Part shown: positions 9,339 to 58,550 of the stretch, piece by piece
Position numbering within the stretch: position 1 is the stretch's first letter
Layout: every line of letters begins with the position of its first letter
Assembly: GCA_041917755.1 (NCBI GenBank)
Contig: JAYRWY010000003.1
Location: 8,563 to 72,562, forward strand
Reading direction: 5' to 3'
DNA length: 64,000 nt
DNA from: Alphaproteobacteria bacterium
GTDB taxonomy: Bacteria; Pseudomonadota; Alphaproteobacteria; UBA9219; RGZA01
Program-made: the position numbers and the translations under genes
The notes under the pieces: model-generated
Databases searched by the model: none
What the model saw: only the letters and a program-made list of their open reading frames with translations
Told to the model about the DNA's origin: nothing

Positions 9339-10541
9339 ATGCCTCATTACGCGTATCGTGCGGTAAATGAACAAGGCATGGTCAATAAAGGCGAGGCCCT
9401 TGCTGCCAACGAGAACGAGCTGTATGCCAAACTTCAGCAGCAGGGTTTAAATCTGATTGATTGCCACGATCGGCATGATGGTCAAAAATTATTTCAAAAA
9501 AAAATGAAACTAGCAGAACAGGTACTGCTATGTCGCCATCTAGTCATGCTCACCAAGGCAGGGGTTCCCGTCCATACAGCACTTGAAGATGTCTTACCAG
9601 CTCTGCCTGGCAATATCCGGCATAATGTCAGTTTAATTCTAGGCAATATAACAAGTGGTCAAAGCTTATCGTCATGCTTTGCTGAATCCAGTATGAAATT
9701 TGATCCGTTATTTTCCTTATTGCTAAGCGCCGGTGAAAAAACAGGAAAAATTACACAGGCACTGGAATATCTCTACGAAACTTTGAATTGGAAGCAGGAT
9801 TTTACCCAAAAATTGCAGCGCGCCTTATCATATCCATTATTACAAACAGCCATTGCCGGTACCGCAGTGGTTGTGCTGATGACAATCGCGGTTCCGCAAA
9901 TCATCCAGTTACTTGAAGTGATCGGCGAGCACTTACCCATTGCATCGGTTGCATTATTGTGGGGTATGAAACTTTTGGGTGCGGCAATTATTGTATTGGC
10001 CGTTTGCTCACTTGCAGCGGTAGTGTTTTTGCCATTTATCAAAAAAATGCATAATGACATCGCTGAATATATCGACCGTCTATGTCTTTCATTGCCTGTC
10101 ATTGGGCCCTTATTTAAAAAGGTTGAATTGGCACAAATAACCCATGTGTTCTCTGCAATGCTTGGTAGCGGGGTTCAGATGATGGAGGCATTGCAGTTGC
10201 TTCCCACTTTGACAAATAATACCGCCATGGCCGCATCATTGCGCCAAGCAGCTGAGCAGGTAAGAGGCGGGCAGGGCTTAAGTGCCGTATTAACCAAACA
10301 ATTGCTGATTCCCCCTTATGTCATTCGCATCCTAAAAATAGGCGAAGACAGCGGCAAAATGAGCGAAAGCCTTCGCCATATTTCACATGTTTATCAGGAA
10401 GAAAGCCGACAGGCCCTCGATCAGCTACTTAAAATTAGTAGTCTGTTCATCACTGTTGCGGTAGGCTTAATCCTTATATTGATGGTTAGCGGTGTCATGG
10501 TGCCGCTGTACCGTGGCATTAGTCATATGGTGGCTACATGA
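9339..10541 (+). CDS. inner-membrane platform protein (GspF/PilC family)
   Basis: 400 aa with two repeats of the GspF domain and TM helices. Starts 2 nt after the ATPase gene stop. Confidence 0.9.
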   Translation: MPHYAYRAVNEQGMVNKGEALAANENELYAKLQQQGLNLIDCHDRHDGQKLFQKKMKLAEQVLLCRHLVMLTKAGVPVHTALEDVLPALPGNIRHNVSLILGNITSGQSLSSCFAESSMKFDPLFSLLLSAGEKTGKITQALEYLYETLNWKQDFTQKLQRALSYPLLQTAIAGTAVVVLMTIAVPQIIQLLEVIGEHLPIASVALLWGMKLLGAAIIVLAVCSLAAVVFLPFIKKMHNDIAEYIDRLCLSLPVIGPLFKKVELAQITHVFSAMLGSGVQMMEALQLLPTLTNNTAMAASLRQAAEQVRGGQGLSAVLTKQLLIPPYVIRILKIGEDSGKMSESLRHISHVYQEESRQALDQLLKISSLFITVAVGLILILMVSGVMVPLYRGISHMVAT

Positions 10542-30734: not shown

Positions 30735-31095
30735 AGTGGGGGGCTTCTGTTGCCCGGTGCCCCCCGGACCGCTAAGCTTTTCGCTTAACTACCGAATCCC
30801 AAAGGATTAAGCAGCTAGAGCTACGCGAGCTTCAGGAGCAACGTTGTCGTTGGCATCCGTAGTTGTTAGCCCGATAACGGCGGAACCATGCCGAGCAAAA
30901 ACTGTACTTTTACTACATACGTCGATCCTAGTTCGCCCCCACATATTGGCTCTTTGCGACTGCTCTGCGCTTTACGCAACCGCGACTGCAAAAGTAATCT
31001 CTTCCTGAGCCAATATGGTGGAGGCGCCGGGTACCGCCCCCGGGTCCGTCCTGCTTATTCTGTACAGCGTTTATCACCATAGTCGGCGAACCGAC
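30735..31095 (-). ncRNA. ssrA: tmRNA (ssrA), circularly permuted two-piece type; gene boundaries approximate
   Basis: Minus strand: T-arm (CCGGG/CCCGG stem) plus CGCCTCC-A-CCA, with the 3' end at 31016. The 5' strand GGGGGCG begins at 30940 and gives a G3:U70 wobble. The tag ORF GCC AAC GAC AAC GTT GCT CCT GAA GCT CGC GTA GCT CTA GCT GCT TAA at 30854-30807 encodes ANDNVAPEARVALAA. The CCA end precedes the tag ORF in gene orientation. Confidence 0.8.
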
Positions 31096-31298
31096 GGTTC
31101 TGTTTATATCACAAAACCTTTACAATTCGATTGCTTATTTTGGACTGCCTGTATTTTAGCCAATTCTTTCAAGCAATTATGCGACTTTTTTCATGTGAAT
31201 TGTGCCGTGAATGTGTTTGACGGGGGGATGCATTCTAAAAGAAACTATGACCCATCAACGTTCCGTTTTGATTCTTCCTTTCTGGCCCTCATTGGATA

Positions 31299-49070: not shown

Positions 49071-49124
49071 ATCGGGCTTTGGCCTATTTCCTTTGACAAA
49101 AAACCTCATTCAACGCATCTTCTA

Positions 49125-51068
<1,944 letters not shown>

Positions 51069-51080
51069 TAGCAACGCGCC

Positions 51081-52865
51081 ATGACTTTTATCCTTCTTGA
51101 TAACACCAAAGATGAAGGTGAAGGCTCATGGTTGTTCGAAAATCCAATTGAGATTATAAAAGCAGACAATCCTGTTGAGGTCGCCGCGGCACTCGGAAAG
51201 CTAGAAGCTGCTGATAAGAACGGCCTGTTTGCAGCCGGTTTTTTTGCATTTGAACTGGCATATGTGATGGAGCCATCGCTTGCATCTTTATTGCCGGAAC
51301 AACGTGAAACGCCATTAATCTGGTTTGGCGTATTCAAATCACGAAAGAAACTATCTTCAGCTGAAGCAAATGCATTTCTTAGTCAAAAAGCAACAAGTGA
51401 TGCGCAAGTTTCTCTGCTCAAGCCACAATGGTCACTGGATGATTATACAGAGCGATTTAATAAAGCCCGTGATGCTATCCTGTCTGGTGAAGTATATCAG
51501 CTAAACCTTACCTTTAAAACGTCGTTTGATTGTATTGGTGATGCAATCAGTCTTTATCTCAAGCTTCGCTTGCAACAAGCTGTATCTTTTGGTGCGTATA
51601 TTGATGCTCCAGAATTCAAAGTACTGTCACTGTCGCCCGAATTATTCATCAGACAAAATGGGCTGGAGATTGAAACGCGCCCAATGAAAGGGACTGCTCC
51701 TCGCGCATATCTTCCCCAAGACGACAGGCAGGTTGCACTGGCTTTGGCAGCTGATGTGAAATCACAAGCCGAAAACCTCATGATTGTTGATTTAATGCGC
51801 AATGACATCGGACGCATTGCCGAACATCATAGCGTTAAGGTGCATAATTTATTCGAGGTTGAAACCTATAAAACACTCCATCAAATGATATCTACGGTAC
51901 GTGCAACCTTAAAACCAAATATCCGTTTGCATGACTTGCTAAAGGCATTGTTCGCACCCGGCTCTGTAGTGGGGGCGCCAAAAATTCAGGCGATGAAACT
52001 TATCCGTCAATTGGAGCAATCTCCGCGAGGCGTATATTGTGGCGCAATTGGTATGATGGGGCAGGGACAAAAAGTATTTAATGTCGCAATCCGTACAGCC
52101 GTATTATATCCTAGCGATAATAAATATCGTGGCGAGATGGGTGTGGGCAGTGGTGTTGTCTATGACTCTATTGCCAATCATGAATACGAGGAATGCCTAC
52201 TCAAAACAAAGTTTTTTACACAAGATGCCGAACCTTTTGGTCTTATCGAAACGCTACGGTTTGATAAGGGCAGGGGATATTACCTTCTTGATCGGCATTT
52301 GGAGCGGCTGGCAGGATCTGCTGCTTATTTCAATATACCCTTTGATATCAATGTTATTCGTGATGCTTTATTGGCTCATAGTGCTGCATGTGATGTCCTG
52401 CACTTGCGCGTTCGCGTATGTCTATCGGCAAATGGGATGCTTGATATTCAATCTACACCATTAGCAAATGACGCTTTAAGCCAAACCGTTAAATTCATTA
52501 TCTCTGATCAACCTATCCATAGTGCAAATATCCATTTGTATCATAAAACAACTGCGCGGCAGTTTTTAGATGAGCCATGTCAACGATATAAAGAAACAAC
52601 TGGCTGCGATGAAGTTGTATATATCAATCAACGGGGCGAGCTTACACAAGGTAGCTATATGAACCTGTTCCTGGAACAACATGATGGTACTTATCTAACG
52701 CCGCCTCTGACTTCTGGTTTATTGCCCGGAACTTTTAGGGCGGAGTTTATGTCTACTCACTGTGTAATTGAAAAAATACTCTACCCATCCGACATTGCTT
52801 CCGCAAAAGCGGTATATCTGGGTAATTCCGTTCGCGGCTTACTGAAAGCAATCCATATTCAATAG
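51081..52865 (+). CDS. pabBC: bifunctional aminodeoxychorismate synthase component I / aminodeoxychorismate lyase (PabB-PabC fusion)
   Basis: The N-terminal ~380 aa is a chorismate-binding enzyme (GAIGMMGQGQKVFNVAIRT). The C-terminal ~200 aa has a class IV aminotransferase/ADC-lyase fold. Confidence 0.8.
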   Translation: MTFILLDNTKDEGEGSWLFENPIEIIKADNPVEVAAALGKLEAADKNGLFAAGFFAFELAYVMEPSLASLLPEQRETPLIWFGVFKSRKKLSSAEANAFLSQKATSDAQVSLLKPQWSLDDYTERFNKARDAILSGEVYQLNLTFKTSFDCIGDAISLYLKLRLQQAVSFGAYIDAPEFKVLSLSPELFIRQNGLEIETRPMKGTAPRAYLPQDDRQVALALAADVKSQAENLMIVDLMRNDIGRIAEHHSVKVHNLFEVETYKTLHQMISTVRATLKPNIRLHDLLKALFAPGSVVGAPKIQAMKLIRQLEQSPRGVYCGAIGMMGQGQKVFNVAIRTAVLYPSDNKYRGEMGVGSGVVYDSIANHEYEECLLKTKFFTQDAEPFGLIETLRFDKGRGYYLLDRHLERLAGSAAYFNIPFDINVIRDALLAHSAACDVLHLRVRVCLSANGMLDIQSTPLANDALSQTVKFIISDQPIHSANIHLYHKTTARQFLDEPCQRYKETTGCDEVVYINQRGELTQGSYMNLFLEQHDGTYLTPPLTSGLLPGTFRAEFMSTHCVIEKILYPSDIASAKAVYLGNSVRGLLKAIHIQ

Positions 52866-52930
52866 GTCAGCTTTTTCAAAAAATGCCAGTATTTATTGCA
52901 TGAATCATATATAATACAATTCCTATCAAT

Positions 52931-52990
52931 GCACTTGACAATATAAAGCGGCTTTTTCTATACTCAGCGCATTGATTACTTACAGCGTAA
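52931..52990 (+). promoter_or_regulatory. predicted sigma70-type promoter with a downstream palindromic operator
   Basis: TTGACA, 18 nt, TATACT; then the perfect inverted repeat ATTGATTAC-(7 nt)-GTAATCAAT. Confidence 0.45.
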
Positions 52991-53271
52991 TCAATCGTGG
53001 GATTTGAGGGTCAGCTTGCAACCACGTTAAAAATTGCTAAAGCGCTATGGCTAGGGGGCAAGTGAACCCCGATTGGTAAAAGCGTACCGCTTTTCCCGCT
53101 GCTGTAGTCCCTACAGATTGCAAAGTTTCATCAGCCAAGCATTCTGCATTCTAGGACAACAGCACGGCGTTTTGAACATTTCAAAAATCCGTTTTGTTAA
53201 ATGCGTAGCCTAACGCGGCCTATTGGCTTGCGTGTGGTCATAGTGATTACAACCATGCAACGGAATAAGAT

Positions 53272-53553
53272 ATGTCAGAACCGAATTATACTTACCGCCC
53301 AACCTTAAGCGAAGTATTAAACATCGCATTTTCAGCCGAGCGCATAGTCATCGATCCGATTGTGCCAGATGATCTACCCAGCCCTCCAAAGCCAAGCACA
53401 ATAGGCCTAATTGTGCGTGGTATTGCGCGTTATGCAGGGTTTTATGAGGCATTAAAACCCCCCGCTGTGGATCCAATTGCGGCGGCTTTGTCTGATCCAA
53501 GTCGTCCGCTAACGTTAAGCCAAGCTGTTCAACTGGGGCTTCGTCAGGGGTAA
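53272..53553 (+). CDS. hypothetical protein
   Basis: 93 aa and Pro-rich, with no recognized family. Confidence 0.45.
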   Translation: MSEPNYTYRPTLSEVLNIAFSAERIVIDPIVPDDLPSPPKPSTIGLIVRGIARYAGFYEALKPPAVDPIAAALSDPSRPLTLSQAVQLGLRQG

Positions 53554-53559
53554 CACATT

Positions 53560-54123
53560 ATGGTACAGCAATCGACAGTGTTACGTGTTCAAACAGCTAG
53601 CAGTACGCGTCCATCCATTAGCCCTGTTGAACAGGCCGTTCGGCTGGTCGTGTTGGATTTCAATCCGCGTTGGACCATTTCTACAATCGACATATACGGC
53701 GAAGTGGGCCCAGGTTGGATTAAAGGCCCTGAATGTGACTACCCGGCAATTTTCCAAGAATATGCTGGGCGATATCGCATAGAGCGTTTCCGTGAGGAAA
53801 TCGAAGCACTTGGTGGTAAGTTCTTCCTAAAGCCTGACTTGGATGAATGTGAGGATAATCCACTTATCTGGAGTGAAGCAGGGCTATCTGTGCCTGTAGC
53901 AAATGGTATCGATGACGCTGACCATGTTGCTTCTGTTGTGCAAAGCATCAGCTTGGCAGCGGAGCAATCAGAGCTATTTACAATCGGCAGCATCCCTAGC
54001 ATCCGCAATCCGCAAGCCAAGATTGAAACCGTAAAGCGTGAGAATACCAAAGCCATATGGCGCCAAAAATGGCGCGGTAGCTGGCGTGGAGGCGAGTTAT
54101 TGCCATCCAACAAATATGGCTAA
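53560..54123 (+). CDS. hypothetical protein
   Basis: 187 aa. It starts 6 nt after the upstream ORF and is probably co-transcribed with it. Confidence 0.5.
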   Translation: MVQQSTVLRVQTASSTRPSISPVEQAVRLVVLDFNPRWTISTIDIYGEVGPGWIKGPECDYPAIFQEYAGRYRIERFREEIEALGGKFFLKPDLDECEDNPLIWSEAGLSVPVANGIDDADHVASVVQSISLAAEQSELFTIGSIPSIRNPQAKIETVKRENTKAIWRQKWRGSWRGGELLPSNKYG

Positions 54124-54127
54124 AAAT

Positions 54128-54502
54128 TTATAGTGAATTAGTTCTTGGCTTGAAGCGGGCATCAAACACGCCACGCACAGCATCATGAGCAACCTGTTTT
54201 GGATTGCCTACATGGTTGTAGCTGTAGGGGGTGTTTTTTACATTCAATACGATATCAAAGCTTCCTGCTTTATCTGCACTGTGAACAGAAATCTCCAGAT
54301 TATCGGAATTGTGCAATTGTCTAAAAGACTTGCTGGCTTTTAGTTTTTCTAACAACTCAGGATATAGGCCATAGATCGCATCCTGCGTTACTTCTTGTCC
54401 AGCGACCTGAAAGCTCATCTTGATAGACGCAATTCTGGTATGGGTTGGATTATCCCATTTAATGTCTTCACGAATTTCACTCATCGAATAATCGACAGCC
54501 AT
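54128..54502 (-). CDS. hypothetical protein
   Basis: 124 aa with no recognized family. Confidence 0.45.
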   Translation of the reverse strand: MAVDYSMSEIREDIKWDNPTHTRIASIKMSFQVAGQEVTQDAIYGLYPELLEKLKASKSFRQLHNSDNLEISVHSADKAGSFDIVLNVKNTPYSYNHVGNPKQVAHDAVRGVFDARFKPRTNSL

Positions 54503-54552
54503 ACAAGCTCCTGTTTGGTGATTTCGCTAAATTACCCCATAATATTGAAACT

Positions 54553-54580
54553 AAAAAACCCCGCGAAAAGCGGGGTTTTT
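54553..54580. terminator. bidirectional rho-independent terminator
   Basis: CCCCGC-GAAAA-GCGGGG hairpin flanked by an A-tract and a T-tract. Confidence 0.8.
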
Positions 54581-54605
54581 GAATGGGTTAGACGTAGTTT
54601 TTAAA

Positions 54606-56024
54606 CTAGCGAATGTATAGATGAACTTCAGGTGACTGGGCTACGTCACTGCTGATGCTGCTCATGGAAAGGCGGTTTGGTTGAAGACCAAGCTGAATTA
54701 GGGAGCTTTTCACATTTTCAGCATTCCGGTCTGCACGTTCGATATCGCCGCCAACAGCCGCAGGATCATTGCTCTTCGGGCTCACGGCAACGATGGTGAA
54801 ATTTGCATCTGGCTTGCGGTCTAATGCAGTGCTGACCGCTTGATACATCTGATCTTCGTAATCAACTTGTGGTTCGTTAAAGCGGACTAGAACCAATAAT
54901 TGGCCAAGTGTCCCCGCATCATTGGAGTAACCGCCAACGGGCGTCGCTTGGCTGCTCTTGCGGCTGATGGGGGCAGATTGTACTGGGTCAACAGGTACAG
55001 CTGGCGGATTATAAACACCATCATTGGATGGAGCCAGGCTTGTAGGCTGGCTGATGCTTGGAAAGCCGCTAACATCCATTCGTGTATTCGGCAAACTGCC
55101 ATAGCTTGGCTCGTTACCAACGATAACGGTTTGTCCAGCCAGGCTGTTACGAATAAGTTCGCCGCGGCTGATAGCCAGTGCAAGCACCTGCAGGTTTTGG
55201 CGCTCTGTCGCAAGATATGTATTTTGGCGGCGGATGTCGTCATTGATTTCGCCGCGAATACGGTCAACGTTCACTGTATTTTTAGCAACTTCATCGCGGA
55301 TCATCGCAAGCTGGTCATGATCTTCATCCAATGCGCCCGACAGCTCGAAGGCAGCTTTCACAGCTTGCAGTAAATATGCTGCCTGTGATGATGAACCAGA
55401 CAGAGATGTTGAAAGCATATTGAGCTTCGAGATGGAGTAGTTTACCTCGGTCAAGCTTTGTTCGGCTTCGCTCCACTGGCGCTGCAAAATAGGGTTACCA
55501 CGTGTGGTGCCGGCTTCAAGACGTGCAGTAATAGCTGCTACAGTTGAATGGAATTGAATAGCGCCGGCTGCACCGCGGCCGCGTAACTGATTGAATTCGT
55601 CAATATCGCGGTCAACCGCTTGGCGCAAACCAATAGCTTCATCGCGAAGTTGAAATACACGGTCAGAAACAACCGAACCACTTGGCGGGCCAAAATCAGC
55701 AAACATATTTTGTCCAACAGGCACACGCACTGGTGTACGTGATCCGGGTGCCGGGTTTGCGGAATTTACATCAATTTGGCTTGGAGCTGGTGGTGGCGGA
55801 AGACGAAGTCTTGAATCGGTGGCCGCTGCTGCACTGGTGCTAACAGGCTCAATCATATTGCTGGAAGCAGCAGCAGTTGAACCATCTGTGGGTCGGACAA
55901 TCAGCGGGCGTAGCGCATCATCATTCACATCCGCTGTCTGGGCAAATGCGTCGGTGGCTACAAACTGCGCGCTGGCCAAAGCCAACACAGCAGCTAACTG
56001 ATATACATGCTTGGTCAAGTTCAT
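54606..56024 (-). CDS. hypothetical secreted coiled-coil protein (possible OmpA-like C-terminal region)
   Basis: Signal peptide ending AFAQT, then a Ser/Pro-rich segment and a long coiled coil. The C-terminal ...ERADRNAENVKSSLIQLGLQPNRLSMS resembles the OmpA-type peptidoglycan-binding motif only weakly. Confidence 0.5.
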   Translation of the reverse strand: MNLTKHVYQLAAVLALASAQFVATDAFAQTADVNDDALRPLIVRPTDGSTAAASSNMIEPVSTSAAAATDSRLRLPPPPAPSQIDVNSANPAPGSRTPVRVPVGQNMFADFGPPSGSVVSDRVFQLRDEAIGLRQAVDRDIDEFNQLRGRGAAGAIQFHSTVAAITARLEAGTTRGNPILQRQWSEAEQSLTEVNYSISKLNMLSTSLSGSSSQAAYLLQAVKAAFELSGALDEDHDQLAMIRDEVAKNTVNVDRIRGEINDDIRRQNTYLATERQNLQVLALAISRGELIRNSLAGQTVIVGNEPSYGSLPNTRMDVSGFPSISQPTSLAPSNDGVYNPPAVPVDPVQSAPISRKSSQATPVGGYSNDAGTLGQLLVLVRFNEPQVDYEDQMYQAVSTALDRKPDANFTIVAVSPKSNDPAAVGGDIERADRNAENVKSSLIQLGLQPNRLSMSSISSDVAQSPEVHLYIR

Positions 56025-56237: not shown

Positions 56238-58550
56238 TTATCGTCTACGGCGGCCTTTTTTAAAGCTCCGCTTGCCCGAAAACGGGTGTTTGCCACCTTT
56301 TTCACCATCACGGTTCTTGCCCCGATGCTCTGCAAAGCGGGGGCCTCCACTAGCCCTGCCAACCACCCCTACGATACTGAATCGCAGACCGCCCACCACA
56401 GGGTCGGCTTCAACTAACTTTACCCGCAGGGTATCGGCAAGCCGGAAGACTTTTCCATGCTTGGATCCAATCAAACGCTGGTTTTGTTCATCGTGATTAT
56501 AATAATCGTCCGGCAACTGGCTCATGGGAATAAATCCATCCGCCCCGGTTTCAGTTAACCGTACGAACAGACCGGCGCGGGTTACGCCACTAATCCGACC
56601 ATCAAATTCTGCGCCAACATTATCGGCAAGATAGAGGGATGTGTATCTATCGCTTGCATCACGTTCGGCGTCAATTGCGCGGCGTTCGGTTTTGGATATG
56701 TGTTCGCCTATATCATCAAGGCGTGAAAGTTCATCATCAGTTATGCCGTCATTGCCCAATTTGAACAGACGTATAAGTGCGCGGTGTACAATCAAATCCG
56801 CGTAGCGCCTAATGGGCGAAGTGAAATGCGCGTAATGTGACAATGCAAGACCAAAATGCCCGATATTGTCAGGGCTATATATCGCTTGTGCAAGGCTACG
56901 CAGCATCACTTCATTGATAACCTGGCTGTGTGCGGTGTCTACAAATTGTTCCAAAATCGCTGCTAAATCAGCCGGACGAAGGGCTTTGCCCGGGGACAGC
57001 GTCACCCCAAACCCTTTTAGAAAATCGCGCAGATTGGCAATTTTTTCAACGCTGGGTAAATCGTGTACGCGGTACAATGCACCCATATTGCCATCCTGCA
57101 ATGCACGTGCTGCCGCTACGTTTGCCAATACCATGAATTCTTCAATCAACTTATGGCTTTCAAGGCGTGCGCGATTGCCGATGGACGTAATTTTTCCATC
57201 CTCGCTGACCTTAATCTGCCGTTCAGCAATATTCAGTTCTAAAGTGCCGCGTTGTTTACGTGCCTCCAATAATACGGCGTAGGCGCCATAAAGCGGCTTA
57301 ATGACACTTTCTAAAATCGGCTTGGTGATTTCATTTGGATTTCCATCCATCGCTTCTTGCACCTGTTCATAGGTGGTGCGTGCAACGGATTTCATAAGCG
57401 CGCGGCTGAATTTGAAATGTTTCAGCTCGCCTTTTTTATCGATGGTCATATGCGCAACCATACATGCACGATCGACCAATGGTTTAAGGGAGCATAATTC
57501 ATTGCTTAATGCCTCGGGAAGCATGGGCACAACGCGGTCTGGAAAGTAAACCGAATTGCCACGCTTATAGGCTTCGCGGTCGATAATCGAATTCGATGTG
57601 ACATAGTGTGATACGTCGGCAATCGCGACGGTCAGCTTCCAGCCGCCTTTATTTGACGGGCTGTCATCCATTTCTGCATGAACGGCGTCATCGAAGTCGC
57701 GGGCATCCGCACCATCAATAGTGATAAGGGGGAGGGAACGTAAATCAGTACGTCCCTTTAAATCCGCCGCCTCAAGTTTTTCGGATGCAGCCACCACACC
57801 ATCTGGGAATACCCACGGAATGCTATGCTGTGCAATAGCAATTAAGCTAACGGCGCGCGGCGCATTCAATGGCCCGAGGTTTTCGGTGAGGCGAACCAGT
57901 TTTTTACCAAATTTGCTTTGTGATAAAACTTCGGCTGTAACAATGTCGCCTTTCTTGGCTTCAATCGTCTGTGCCTTGGTATCTAGGATATATTCATCGC
58001 GGTTTTTACGGTCCGTTGGCCGTAAAACCAATCCCTGGCCACTTTCTTCAAGCACGCCAACCAGTTTGTTTACGGCGCGTGGTAGGCGTTTAATAGGACG
58101 GGCTGTATATTGCCCGCGTCCTTGGTGCTCTAGGCGAACGAGCACCCTGTCGCCTTTAGCCAGACTTTCCAGCTTAAGTGTTTTTGCCTGATGATGGGAG
58201 ATATGCAAATGGATCTGCGCGTTGGGGTCTTTCTGTTCTTCCAACGGACGAACCGAAATGTTATCGCCATCAATCTGGGTAATTTCAACGCCCAAGACAT
58301 CAGGCAGTGCGCCTGGACGGCTTATTTTTTTACCGAATGTTTTTTCAACGACACCTGTGATTTTTAAATCTTGGAGTAGTCGTTTAAGCTGAATGCGCTG
58401 ATCATCATGGATTTTAAAGTGCCGCGCGATTTCGCGCTTTCCTACCGGGACAGGACTTTCTTTGATGAATTTCAGAATTTCTTCCCGCGTAGGGAAGGGG
58501 TAGGATTTTTTTGGTTTAAGTGGTTTGTTCTTTTTCAATATAGTCTTCAA
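56238..58550 (-). CDS. rnr: ribonuclease R
   Basis: 770 aa with HTH, cold-shock, RNB and S1 domains and a basic tail. Confidence 0.9.
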   Translation of the reverse strand: MKTILKKNKPLKPKKSYPFPTREEILKFIKESPVPVGKREIARHFKIHDDQRIQLKRLLQDLKITGVVEKTFGKKISRPGALPDVLGVEITQIDGDNISVRPLEEQKDPNAQIHLHISHHQAKTLKLESLAKGDRVLVRLEHQGRGQYTARPIKRLPRAVNKLVGVLEESGQGLVLRPTDRKNRDEYILDTKAQTIEAKKGDIVTAEVLSQSKFGKKLVRLTENLGPLNAPRAVSLIAIAQHSIPWVFPDGVVAASEKLEAADLKGRTDLRSLPLITIDGADARDFDDAVHAEMDDSPSNKGGWKLTVAIADVSHYVTSNSIIDREAYKRGNSVYFPDRVVPMLPEALSNELCSLKPLVDRACMVAHMTIDKKGELKHFKFSRALMKSVARTTYEQVQEAMDGNPNEITKPILESVIKPLYGAYAVLLEARKQRGTLELNIAERQIKVSEDGKITSIGNRARLESHKLIEEFMVLANVAAARALQDGNMGALYRVHDLPSVEKIANLRDFLKGFGVTLSPGKALRPADLAAILEQFVDTAHSQVINEVMLRSLAQAIYSPDNIGHFGLALSHYAHFTSPIRRYADLIVHRALIRLFKLGNDGITDDELSRLDDIGEHISKTERRAIDAERDASDRYTSLYLADNVGAEFDGRISGVTRAGLFVRLTETGADGFIPMSQLPDDYYNHDEQNQRLIGSKHGKVFRLADTLRVKLVEADPVVGGLRFSIVGVVGRASGGPRFAEHRGKNRDGEKGGKHPFSGKRSFKKGRRRR

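Follow-up and report, generated by a model that had tools for sequence, protein, structure and literature searches.

A putative SAM-II riboswitch precedes an operon of two orphan, sulfur-poor proteins in an uncultured alphaproteobacterial lineage

Analysis of a 64,000-nucleotide stretch of DNA (the window) revealed a bicistronic operon, ORF93-ORF187, whose gene families are confined to one uncultured alphaproteobacterial lineage. The operon is probably gated by a riboswitch and acts, again probably, in sulfur, methionine or SAM homeostasis. ORF93 (53272-53553, 93 aa) and ORF187 (53560-54123, 187 aa) lie on the plus strand, and ORF124 (54128-54502, 124 aa) lies on the minus strand; purifying selection acts on all three, which are genuine genes. 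The element ahead of the pair is assigned, from its sequence, to the SAM-II riboswitches, and control by such an element would point to a methionine/SAM context. ORF93 and ORF187 are depleted of sulfur-containing residues, as are the FAD-binding/rhodanese proteins encoded in the same slot of several sister genomes.

The ORF93-ORF187 operon and its neighbours

The three ORFs are present at the positions given by an earlier, sequence-only reading of this DNA, which had also described the 6-nt gap between ORF93 and ORF187, the convergent ORF124 and a location between thiC-pabBC and rnr; these points are borne out, and the co-transcription it proposed for ORF93 and ORF187 is supported. The genes, which it called uncharacterised, found no match in Pfam, NCBIfam, PHROGs, PADLOC or PDB sequences, and no toxin-antitoxin, defence or metabolic motif is recognisable in them. 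Pfam, NCBIfam, PHROGs and PADLOC scans of ORF93, ORF187, ORF124 and the neighbouring ORF472 gave noise only, and no PDB sequence profile matched the small proteins. PADLOC returned nothing for ORF93 or ORF187, and its Cas6b match to ORF124 (E 0.02) is noise.

Gene order in this region, thiC-pabBC-[leader]-small ORF-ORF187-...-rnr-topA, is common to about 10 related lineages, while the content of the slot varies between them: an FAD/rhodanese gene and an ORF124-like gene come and go. The suggestion that the pair is a recent accessory insertion is contradicted by this conserved order and by a GC content of 0.49 for the pair against a window mean of 0.47; mobile-element genes were absent near the pair. 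A first scan of genome contigs with single-sequence peptides found nothing, and a second scan with the alignment found two MAGs. Metagenome contigs, scanned with the RNA pattern and with the protein alignment, yielded nothing in either case.

ORF187 is the more conserved member of the pair, with dN/dS values of 0.04-0.15. A word-index search of 5.8e9 proteins recovered 10 close homologues, and an exhaustive profile search of 1.84e9 representatives gave three matches: P0020, P0021 and the spurious repeat protein P0022. A Pfam scan of all members of the ORF187 alignment revealed no consistent weak match, the protein has no catalytic motif, and its AF2 model was unusable (pLDDT 39.9). ORF187 has no internal Met and ends in an invariant C-terminal tail, WRQKWRGSWRGGELLPSNKYG, rich in Trp and Arg (WRxx three times, followed by GGELLPSNKYG); the tail is constant at the amino-acid level despite synonymous variation, and a basic tail is also found in the distant homologues P0020 and P0021. 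We considered ORF187 as the missing PabA and rejected this assignment, as it has no GATase domain and no conserved Cys.

ORF93 evolves fast, is rich in Pro and lacks both Cys and internal Met. Most sister loci carry an ORF of 65-93 aa in the same slot, only 16-32% identical to ORF93 of the window, with dN/dS values of 0.14-0.33 among close pairs. A role as a ThiS/MoaD-like sulfur carrier was rejected in the absence of a C-terminal Gly-Gly; the small ORFs end in ...LRQG, ...LGL, ...LRI, ...LSL and ...LVP. A terminator-like hairpin inside ORF93 (53462-53485) was set aside because the number of such sites equals the chance expectation.

The sequence-only reading had described all three genes as a cluster. 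They are not one module. ORF124 is a separate, fast-evolving orphan gene outside the riboswitch operon: it is a convergent unit with its own strong Shine-Dalgarno (SD) sequence (AGGAG) and a normal Met content, and it is missing from some sister genomes that retain the ORF93-ORF187 pair (L003, L011). ORF124 has three homologues in the database; it is 41-55% identical to the same-slot proteins of L006 and L007 and remotely similar to those of L009 and L016. Against the closest homologue, pN is 0.29 and pS 0.78 (saturated), giving a pN/pS of 0.37. Its AF2 model (pLDDT 72.5) predicts an alpha/beta fold, for which Foldseek returned weak matches only (TM 0.36-0.40).

ORF124 had further been described as followed by a strong bidirectional terminator. 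Such a hairpin exists, AAAAAACCCCGC-GAAAA-GCGGGGTTTTT (A5-CCCCGC-GAAAA-GCGGGG-T5, 54554-54580), with a folding energy of about -22 kcal/mol (plus strand) or -21 kcal/mol (minus strand); its position was misjudged, since its coordinates exceed the ORF124 start codon (54502) and it therefore lies upstream of ORF124 on that gene's own strand. On the minus strand the hairpin is downstream of the ORF472 stop (54606) and ends ORF472. A plus-strand ORF93-ORF187 transcript can end here only if it has first run antisense across ORF124. Just 4 nt separate the ORF187 stop from that of ORF124, and this gap holds no terminator. A Trp_leader match at 54510-54583 (24.5 bits, gathering score 41) is just this terminator hairpin.

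The SAM-II aptamer and its leader extension

A sigma-70-like promoter, TTGACA-18-TATACT (52935-52964, plus strand), matches the consensus at 11 of 12 positions, and CTTGACAAT...TATA(T/G)T is kept upstream of every leader copy in related loci. What the sequence-only reading called the regulated promoter is, by its sequence, a SAM-II riboswitch leader, an element which that reading missed. The region 52987-53060 (plus strand) matches the SAM-II aptamer (SAM_alpha, RF00521) at 40.3 bits, exceeding the gathering score (36), with a whole-window E of 1.3e-5. Its core, GAUUUGA...GCUUGCAA...UGCUAAAGC, of which UGCUAAAGC is the 3' tail (53035-53043), is identical in all leader copies compared, L014 included. 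In the P1 stem, 100% of cells are paired and one CG pair has become UA through a change on each side; from the sequence, the pseudoknot can be read as GCUU:AAGC. Leaders of the relatives score 25-29 bits, under the gathering score despite near-identical cores. These features identify 52987-53060 at the sequence level as a SAM-II riboswitch, and the leader would putatively bind SAM and repress downstream expression.

Wherever a locus extended far enough upstream, nhmmer located the leader ahead of the small ORF/ORF187 pair, L010 and L013 excepted. In these two the ORF187 homologue directly follows pabC, with neither leader nor small ORF, so riboswitch control is not universal. The leader also precedes the 29%-identical homologue P0021 in L014. 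The genes behind it are the orphans ORF93 and ORF187 or, in relatives, an FAD/rhodanese protein; no known met gene is among them.

The aptamer continues into an extension, or expression platform, of ~115 nt (53044-53173, plus strand) that is covered by no Rfam family and is as conserved as the aptamer itself: it is 77-87% identical to its relatives, where the aptamer reaches 81-90% and the TPP leader 59-69%, and its loops are conserved like the aptamer. It comprises the 5' strand of helix H1 (53044-53051), a GGGG/CCCC hairpin (53054-53070), a variable covarying hairpin (53075-53096), a predicted long hairpin, T (53096-53167), and a short U-tract (UUUU, 53170-53173). Between the T hairpin and ORF93 lies a spacer (53174-53271) with the palindrome UUUUGAACAUUUCAAAA and a weak SD sequence (GGAA). 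A 10-codon uORF starting at 53048 (MARGQVNPDW) was rejected, as neither its frame nor its AUG is conserved (frameshifted in L001a, AUA in L011 and L016, no AUG in L014); its sequence is H1/H2 RNA structure.

The T hairpin was predicted independently in all 12 leaders, and its base covaries as CCG:CGG, UUCCU:AGGAA (the SD sequence itself), ACCCCGC:GCGGGGU and CGCGCUGU:ACAGCGCG. In four leaders a run of U4-6 comes after the hairpin (UUUU in the window, U5-U6 in L006, L001b and L003), and in seven the hairpin overlaps the SD sequence. With its following U-tract, T looks like a terminator in the window; a consensus terminator scan did not list it, and the U-tract of the window is short. The counterpart of T in sister genomes lies over the ribosome-binding site instead. 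Long leader variants with the spacer occur only in the window, L006, L001b and L003; in the short variants the spacer is missing, and the SD sequence, which is strong in front of their small ORFs, directly follows T.

Helices H1 and T are mutually exclusive. For nine of 10 leaders the predicted fold of the nascent RNA contains H1, and that of the full RNA has T in place of H1; in the window leader the minimum-energy fold of the nascent RNA is without H1. MAFFT alignments of the T domain (A7, A9) had slipped register on the 3' side, so the helix tables are based on folds of the individual sequences. Leader cells are paired in 97.5% of cases, against 31-48% in slid controls, and the structure of the leader is conserved. 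Covariation within the close clade is modest, with two pairs changed on both sides; in L014, stems H4 and H1 differ in sequence yet stay paired.

We propose that ORF93 and ORF187 would be transcribed from the promoter at 52935-52964 under the control of the SAM-II riboswitch. When SAM is plentiful, the aptamer would capture its own 3' tail, allowing the T hairpin (53096-53167) to form; together with the U-tract, T would halt transcription before ORF93, and in sister genomes it would pair with the SD sequence instead of terminating. When SAM is low, helix H1 (GCUAUGGC:GCUGUAGU) would hold the 5' strand of T, RNA polymerase would read through, and ORF93 and ORF187 would be made. In sister genomes the two proteins may act jointly with the same-slot FAD-binding/rhodanese protein. 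We infer this OFF logic and the role of H1 as an antiterminator, together with the biochemical theme of the operon.

Sulfur-poor composition and possible functions

Internal Met makes up 0.59% of the ORF187 family, 0.41% of the small ORFs and 0.28% of the FAD/rhodanese proteins, against a background of 2.41%; values for the orphan neighbours ORF124 and ORF472 are 1.64% and 2.27%. ORF187 of the window has a Met+Cys content of 1.07%, and the lowest value among the 32 large ORFs of the window is 1.45%. The binomial probability is 1.1e-3 for the two window proteins jointly, in statistics whose sequences are phylogenetically non-independent, and 1.7e-18 for the FAD/rhodanese set, whose members are likewise non-independent. 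Being nearly free of Met and Cys, ORF93 and ORF187 can be made when methionine is scarce. Proteins made while sulfur or methionine is short would be expected to show just such a depletion, and here induction by starvation is suggested only by the SAM riboswitch.

The FAD/rhodanese gene occupies the same slot in L001, L003, L016 and L017; tblastn found no such gene elsewhere in the window. Its product bears a catalytic-type CxGGxRS loop. In L001 and L003 the gene sits directly behind a leader copy, and in L016 and L017 it has its own promoter and no riboswitch. The L001 and L003 proteins share only 30% identity, so the association with the operon may stem from a common variable slot and not from a common function. 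We advance tentatively, as a rather doubtful extension of the homeostasis reading, that in an uncultured lineage resembling Rhodospirillales, ORF93, ORF187 and the sister FAD/rhodanese protein form a new pathway or factor, repressed by SAM, that serves sulfur/methionine acquisition or SAM homeostasis, and that the leader extension is more than a passive platform and could be a released trans-acting sRNA or a binding site for the invariant Trp/Arg tail of ORF187.

Among other readings, ORF187 might be a regulatory or nucleic-acid-binding factor, for example RNA- or ribosome-associated, that is made on SAM starvation, is not a metabolic enzyme and possibly feeds back on its own leader. The Trp/Arg tail held invariant by selection at the amino-acid level, the basic tails of P0020 and P0021, the missing catalytic motif and extension loops as conserved as the aptamer are consistent with this, and stable sRNAs are released from S. 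meliloti SAM-II leaders (PMC9373788); the extension could then be an ORF187 binding site or a trans-acting sRNA freed by termination. ORF187 has no homology to any RNA-binding domain, however, its tail might as well contact a membrane or a partner protein, and the neighbouring FAD/rhodanese gene is left unexplained, so that we regard such a role as unlikely. Less likely still is a part for ORF187, with the adjacent pabBC/thiC, in folate or thiamine cofactor synthesis tied to one-carbon/SAM supply, the riboswitch merely coordinating it with the methyl cycle. ORF187 does lie directly downstream of pabBC in all close relatives, and it lies 68-150 nt after pabC in L010 and L013, where it has no riboswitch of its own, but this synteny may simply be inherited because the relatives are closely related. 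The distant homologue of L014 is away from pabBC/thiC yet has the leader, the operon has its own promoter, and ORF187 contains no glutamine amidotransferase (PabA-like) or other cofactor-pathway domain.

That the pair is a toxin-antitoxin-like or defence/accessory module seems very improbable. A small, fast-evolving gene 6 nt upstream of a conserved one, a narrow distribution and a variable neighbouring slot would fit it, but neither PADLOC nor PHROGs gave a match, synteny is stable amid chromosomal housekeeping genes in about 10 lineages without GC anomaly or nearby mobile-element genes, and riboswitch control and sulfur depletion are unexpected for such genes. It is scarcely credible that the ORFs are spurious and the RNA leader alone is functional: the low identity of ORF93 across lineages and the missing family matches are outweighed by dN/dS (for ORF124, pN/pS) well below 1 for all three genes with saturated synonymous sites, by the strong SD sequences of short-variant small ORFs and by retention of the ORFs in the same slot in about 10 lineages. 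The homeostasis reading is the one we favour. Few pointers to genes of methionine/sulfur metabolism are as reliable as SAM riboswitch regulons, and the riboswitch here marks protein families described in no database. The extreme Met/Cys depletion independently backs this link, and a rhodanese flavoprotein stands alongside in some genomes. If the homeostasis reading holds, ORF93 and ORF187 would be candidates for a new step in the scavenging of sulfur or in SAM homeostasis, within a narrow clade whose lineage is seen only in metagenomes. Judged by its predicted folds, the leader would also be a clear natural case of one SAM-II platform that either terminates transcription or sequesters the SD sequence, according to the genome.

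Comparison with known systems

Strong depletion of Met and Cys links ORF93 and ORF187 to sulfur-spared proteins. Cyanobacterial phycobiliprotein isoforms, reportedly described by Mazel & Marliere in 1989, are said to be sulfur-spared and induced by sulfur starvation, and the sulfur-assimilation enzymes of E. coli and yeast are reportedly sulfur-spared as well (Baudouin-Cornu et al. in 2001). Those proteins are of known function, whereas for ORF93 and ORF187 the main hint at function is the depletion itself, and starvation induction would be expected from the riboswitch. Type II toxin-antitoxin operons share the arrangement of a small, faster-evolving upstream gene and a larger gene a few nt downstream; in contrast to them, the ORF93-ORF187 pair has no homology to toxin or antitoxin families, a putative riboswitch in place of autorepression, a fixed chromosomal synteny and a sulfur-depleted composition.

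In 'Ca. Pelagibacter ubique', the SAM-V/SAM-II-controlled bhmT-osmC-ordL locus belongs to a SAM regulon that extends beyond the canonical met genes, as would the regulon here; the operons behind its SAM riboswitches respond to sulfur limitation by induction and include non-canonical oxidoreductases (PMC5069961). These genes are members of known families and have no sequence relationship to ORF93 or ORF187.

There is a likeness, too, to the SAM-II leaders of metA/metZ/metX/metY in Alphaproteobacteria such as Sinorhizobium meliloti, which carry the same aptamer class in the 5' leader (PMC9373788). The S. meliloti metZ and metA riboswitches have downstream terminators, and high SAM gives more of the terminated sRNA (PMC9373788). 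As in these leaders, the regulated start codon is far from the aptamer, and the hairpin and U-tract after the aptamer would free a transcript of ~200 nt at high SAM. Unlike the metA/metZ leaders, the present one belongs to a Rhodospirillales-like uncultured lineage, precedes orphan proteins and not methionine-biosynthesis enzymes, and carries a ~115-nt platform as conserved as its aptamer, which would act as a terminator or as an SD sequestrator depending on the genome.

Gene Layout and Conservation of the Cluster

The fused pabBC gene (51081-52865, plus strand) follows thiC (49260-51068, plus strand), which lies behind a TPP riboswitch located directly 5' of it (49124-49216, plus strand, 75.7 bits). 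The TPP elements of two related contigs, L001 and L003, score 47-48 bits, under the gathering score. pabBC is fused in the window and other loci (594-595 aa), while in L010 (449-2231) pabB and pabC are separate and overlapping. An intergenic stretch of 406 nt separates pabBC from two plus-strand genes, ORF93 (53272-53553) and ORF187 (53560-54123), the latter starting 6 nt 3' of the former. The convergent ORF124 (54128-54502, minus strand) has a strong Shine-Dalgarno (SD) sequence (AGGAG, 7 nt 5' of the ATG), and its stop is 4 nt from that of ORF187; ORF472 (54606-56024) and rnr (56238-58550) lie beyond it on the minus strand. An earlier sequence-only reading had the coordinates and geometry of the three small ORFs right, except that it placed a terminator after ORF124. 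The hairpin in question, A5-CCCCGC-GAAAA-GCGGGG-T5 (54554-54580; folding energy about -22 kcal/mol for the plus and -21 for the minus strand), separates the ORF472 stop from the ORF124 start and is therefore upstream of ORF124 on its coding strand. The 3' ends of ORF187 and ORF124 have no terminator in between, and a plus-strand operon transcript would have to cross ORF124 antisense before reaching the hairpin.

Searches with ORF93, ORF187, ORF124, and ORF472 against Pfam, NCBIfam, PHROGs, and PADLOC revealed nothing above noise, and PDB sequence profiles gave no match, in agreement with the earlier view that the three small proteins belong to no recognised family; the same four databases gave no support for membership in toxin-antitoxin or defence systems. 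Among 5.8 billion proteins ORF187 has only 10 relatives (67-99% identity). When 1.84 billion cluster representatives were searched exhaustively by profile, just two distant homologues were added, P0020 at 49% identity and P0021 at 29% (E 2.5e-5); the remaining match, a repeat protein, was discarded as spurious. ORF124 has three relatives, and in most sister loci the position of ORF93 is filled by an ORF of 65-93 aa only 16-32% identical to it. The possibility that the ORFs are spurious is countered by dN/dS values of 0.04-0.15 for ORF187 (synonymous sites saturated) and 0.14-0.33 for close pairs of small ORFs, and by a pN of 0.29 against a pS of 0.78 between ORF124 and its closest homologue; all three are genuine genes. 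AlphaFold2 yielded an unusable model for ORF187 (pLDDT 39.9) and a moderate alpha/beta model for ORF124 (pLDDT 72.5), whose best PDB structure matches were weak (Rpb11, ACT-like, S6, and LuxS; E about 5e-3, TM 0.36-0.40), and no assignment was drawn. ORF472 represents an orphan family with conserved synteny beside rnr, and displays a signal-peptide-like N-terminal segment and a Pro-rich region; its L003 homologue has a weak OmpA-like match at the C-terminus (E 0.017).

The order thiC, pabBC, promoter and leader, small ORF, ORF187, in some cases an ORF124-like gene, ORF472-like gene, rnr, topA was found on contigs of about ten distinct lineages, two of which are GTDB species representatives ('Alphaproteobacteria bacterium' and 'uncultured Rhodospirillales bacterium'). 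This recurrence marks the cluster as inherited within the lineage rather than recently inserted, and its GC content of 0.49 matches the window mean of 0.47; both observations speak against the proposed accessory insertion between thiC-pabBC and rnr-topA. A two-piece (permuted) alpha-type tmRNA gene (30735-31134, minus strand, 242.6 bits) supports an alphaproteobacterial origin of the window.

A SAM-II Leader with a Conserved Extension

A near-consensus promoter, TTGACA-18-TATACT (52935-52964, plus strand), precedes a SAM-II/SAM_alpha riboswitch aptamer (52987-53060, plus strand) that reaches 40.3 bits, where the gathering score is 36; its E value, computed over the whole 64-kb window, is 1.3e-5. 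Aptamer identity to the related contigs compared is 81-90%, and a further ~115 nt beyond it (to about 53173) are 77-87% identical, compared with only 59-69% for the TPP leader of the same genomes. Rfam holds no family for this extension. Its elements are a GGGG/CCCC hairpin whose loop carries a conserved GUG, a second hairpin of variable sequence in which pairing is always kept, and a long composite hairpin, T (53096-53167), in which an outer stem and GUCC:GGAC are combined with the stems H4 (7 bp) and H5 (4 bp, loop UCAUC).

RNAfold, applied to each leader separately, predicted T in all 12. Covariation is seen at the base of T (CCG:CGG, CCGC:GCGG, UUCCU:AGGAA, ACCCCGC:GCGGGGU, and CGCGCUGU:ACAGCGCG), and H4 in the distant L014 copy is wholly rewritten yet paired, from CAGAUUG:CAAUCUG to CGCUGAUG:CAUCAGCG. 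In alignment A5, 97.5% of cells pair, compared with 31-48% in slid controls; covariation within the close clade is modest. T is followed by U4-U6 in the window, L006, L003, and L001b, one of two leader copies of L001, so it appears terminator-like there. In L001a, L007, L009, L011, L012, L016, and L017 its 3' strand enters or pairs with the SD just 5' of the start codon. An alternative helix, H1, combines GCUAUGGC, directly 3' of the aptamer tail, with GCUGUAGU, within the T 5' strand. In 9 of 10 leaders the nascent RNA adopts H1 at minimum energy, and in all 10 this helix is gone when the T 3' strand is included; the two are thus predicted to be competing conformers. The L014 H1 retains 8 of 8 pairs with three substitutions in its 5' strand.

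Bound SAM would favour T, leading to termination or SD occlusion, while low SAM would favour H1. We infer this direction, that of a classical OFF switch, from the composition of the regulated proteins and from the precedent of the S. meliloti SAM-II leaders, which carry terminators downstream and whose terminated sRNA rises at high SAM (PMC9373788). In every locus ORF187 and the next gene are convergent with a 0-8 nt gap and no terminator between them (window 54123-54128; L003 10567-10569; L009 947-948), so the SAM-controlled transcript must run antisense into the neighbouring gene. With this layout, ORF124 or ORF472 could be subject to antisense interference that depends on SAM.

The most telling association is the leader located by nhmmer (leader alignment) 5' of P0021 in L014, in a wholly different gene neighbourhood. 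L010 and L013 run counter to this association: there, pabC is directly followed by the ORF187 homologue, with neither leader nor small ORF. Between the L014 leader and the P0021 start codon (SD GAGGAAAAG) lie two copies of a CU-rich direct repeat, AGCTTCCTTCACACTTCCTC (9905-9950), which is a candidate anti-SD; the genes downstream encode two orphan paralogues without a family match (217/221 and 261 aa, 32% identical). Immediately 3' of T, only the long leader variants (window, L006, the second L001 copy, and L003) conserve a palindrome, UUUUGAA(N3)UUCAAAA, followed by AUCCGUUUUGUU (window 53166-53200), possibly serving as a second terminator or as an operator.

A Variable Slot and Sulfur-Poor Proteins

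In L001, L003, L016, and L017 a gene between pabBC and the small ORF encodes a protein of 613-665 aa that combines an FAD/NAD(P)-binding domain at the N-terminus (PF13454) with a rhodanese domain at the C-terminus, the latter bearing a CxGGxRS loop; just 4 members of this family occur among the 5.8e9 proteins of the collection. The sole leader of L003 stands 5' of this gene, with the small ORF 11 nt after it, whereas L001 has one leader copy 5' of the FAD/rhodanese gene and another 5' of the small ORF. The L016 and L017 copies of the gene share the promoter motif but lack the riboswitch. That motif, AATTCCTAC(A/C)AA..ACTTGACAAT, includes the -35 box and is common to leader and FAD/rhodanese promoters (window 52915-52945; L016 7925-7955 and 9915-9945; L017 990-1020), which suggests that a promoter cassette was duplicated or that both promoters share a site for a transcription factor. 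The gene is missing from the window locus and L006, and tblastn found no copy elsewhere in the window, an arrangement that could have arisen through loss of the segment between two promoter-leader copies such as L001 has. The proteins of L001 (7270-9267) and L003 (7888-9756) occupy the same slot and share only 30% identity, compared with 72-79% between the flanking ORF187 genes and that of the window, a contrast that suggests replacement or very rapid evolution. The ORF124-like gene is missing in L003 and L011 and highly diverged in L009, L016, and L001.

Internal Met and Cys, respectively, make up 2.41% and 0.87% of the background set (the 32 window ORFs with a length of 250 aa or more), 0.59% and 0.23% of the ORF187 family, 0.41% and 0.14% of the small ORFs, and 0.28% and 0.36% of the FAD/rhodanese proteins. 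Not one internal Met occurs among the 278 residues of window ORF93 and ORF187 together (binomial P = 1.1e-3), and the Met+Cys content of ORF187 (1.07%) is lower than that of any large window ORF (minimum 1.45%). Across the 2516 residues of the FAD/rhodanese set there are 7 internal Met (P about 2e-18, a statistic that ignores relatedness). Met content is ordinary in the ORF124 (1.64%; Cys 0.00%) and ORF472 (2.27%; Cys 0.14%) families, and Met depletion is therefore not a general trait of orphan genes at the locus. A low content of sulfur amino acids is a recognised mark of proteins produced during sulfur shortage. The depletion fits a SAM-repressed operon as a second, independent clue, and would tie the FAD/rhodanese gene functionally to ORF93 and ORF187 even where it has its own promoter.

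Proposed Role and Relation to Known Systems

ORF187 consists of a variable N-terminus of about 25 residues, a conserved core (...LGG.F.LKPDL....NPL.W..AGL..PV.....D.V...QSISLAAEQSG.FT.GS...IRNP), and a C-terminal tail, WRQKWRGSWRGGELLPSNKYG, invariant in all ten close members while its codons vary freely; selection thus acts on the tail as a peptide. Its sequence lacks a signal peptide, a transmembrane segment, and a catalytic signature. ORF93 is Pro-rich and fast-evolving, and the only recurring parts of the small-ORF family, found in part of its members, are a short N-terminal TLSxxV motif and a hydrophobic LxLGL-type C-terminal end. A sulfur-carrier role for ORF93 was considered and rejected, as the GG terminus is absent.

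That ORF93-ORF187 is a SAM-repressed, sulfur-spared pair is well supported in its regulatory and compositional parts. The favoured, though weakly supported, reading of its biochemistry is that the pair serves the homeostasis of sulfur, methionine, or SAM, partnered by the rhodanese flavoprotein where this is present. The main rival to such a role is that ORF187 is a regulatory or RNA-binding factor acting via its Trp/Arg tail, the basic character of which is kept in the distant homologues. Of the novel three-gene module proposed from sequence, ORF93-ORF187 stands as a genuine uncharacterised unit with a clear regulatory context, and ORF124 is a bystander.

The aptamer belongs to the SAM-II/SAM_alpha class and departs from it only in context, as its targets are not the known met genes; the lineage and targets of SAM-II control seen here are new. 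Here the SAM-riboswitch regulon reaches orphan, sulfur-poor proteins, through an expression platform that is unusually conserved and dual-use. The S. meliloti SAM-II leaders offer a precedent for terminators and long-distance control 3' of the aptamer (PMC9373788), and the SAM-riboswitch operons of Pelagibacter, which contain non-canonical oxidoreductases and are induced by sulfur limitation, offer one for targets outside the canonical met genes (PMC5069961).
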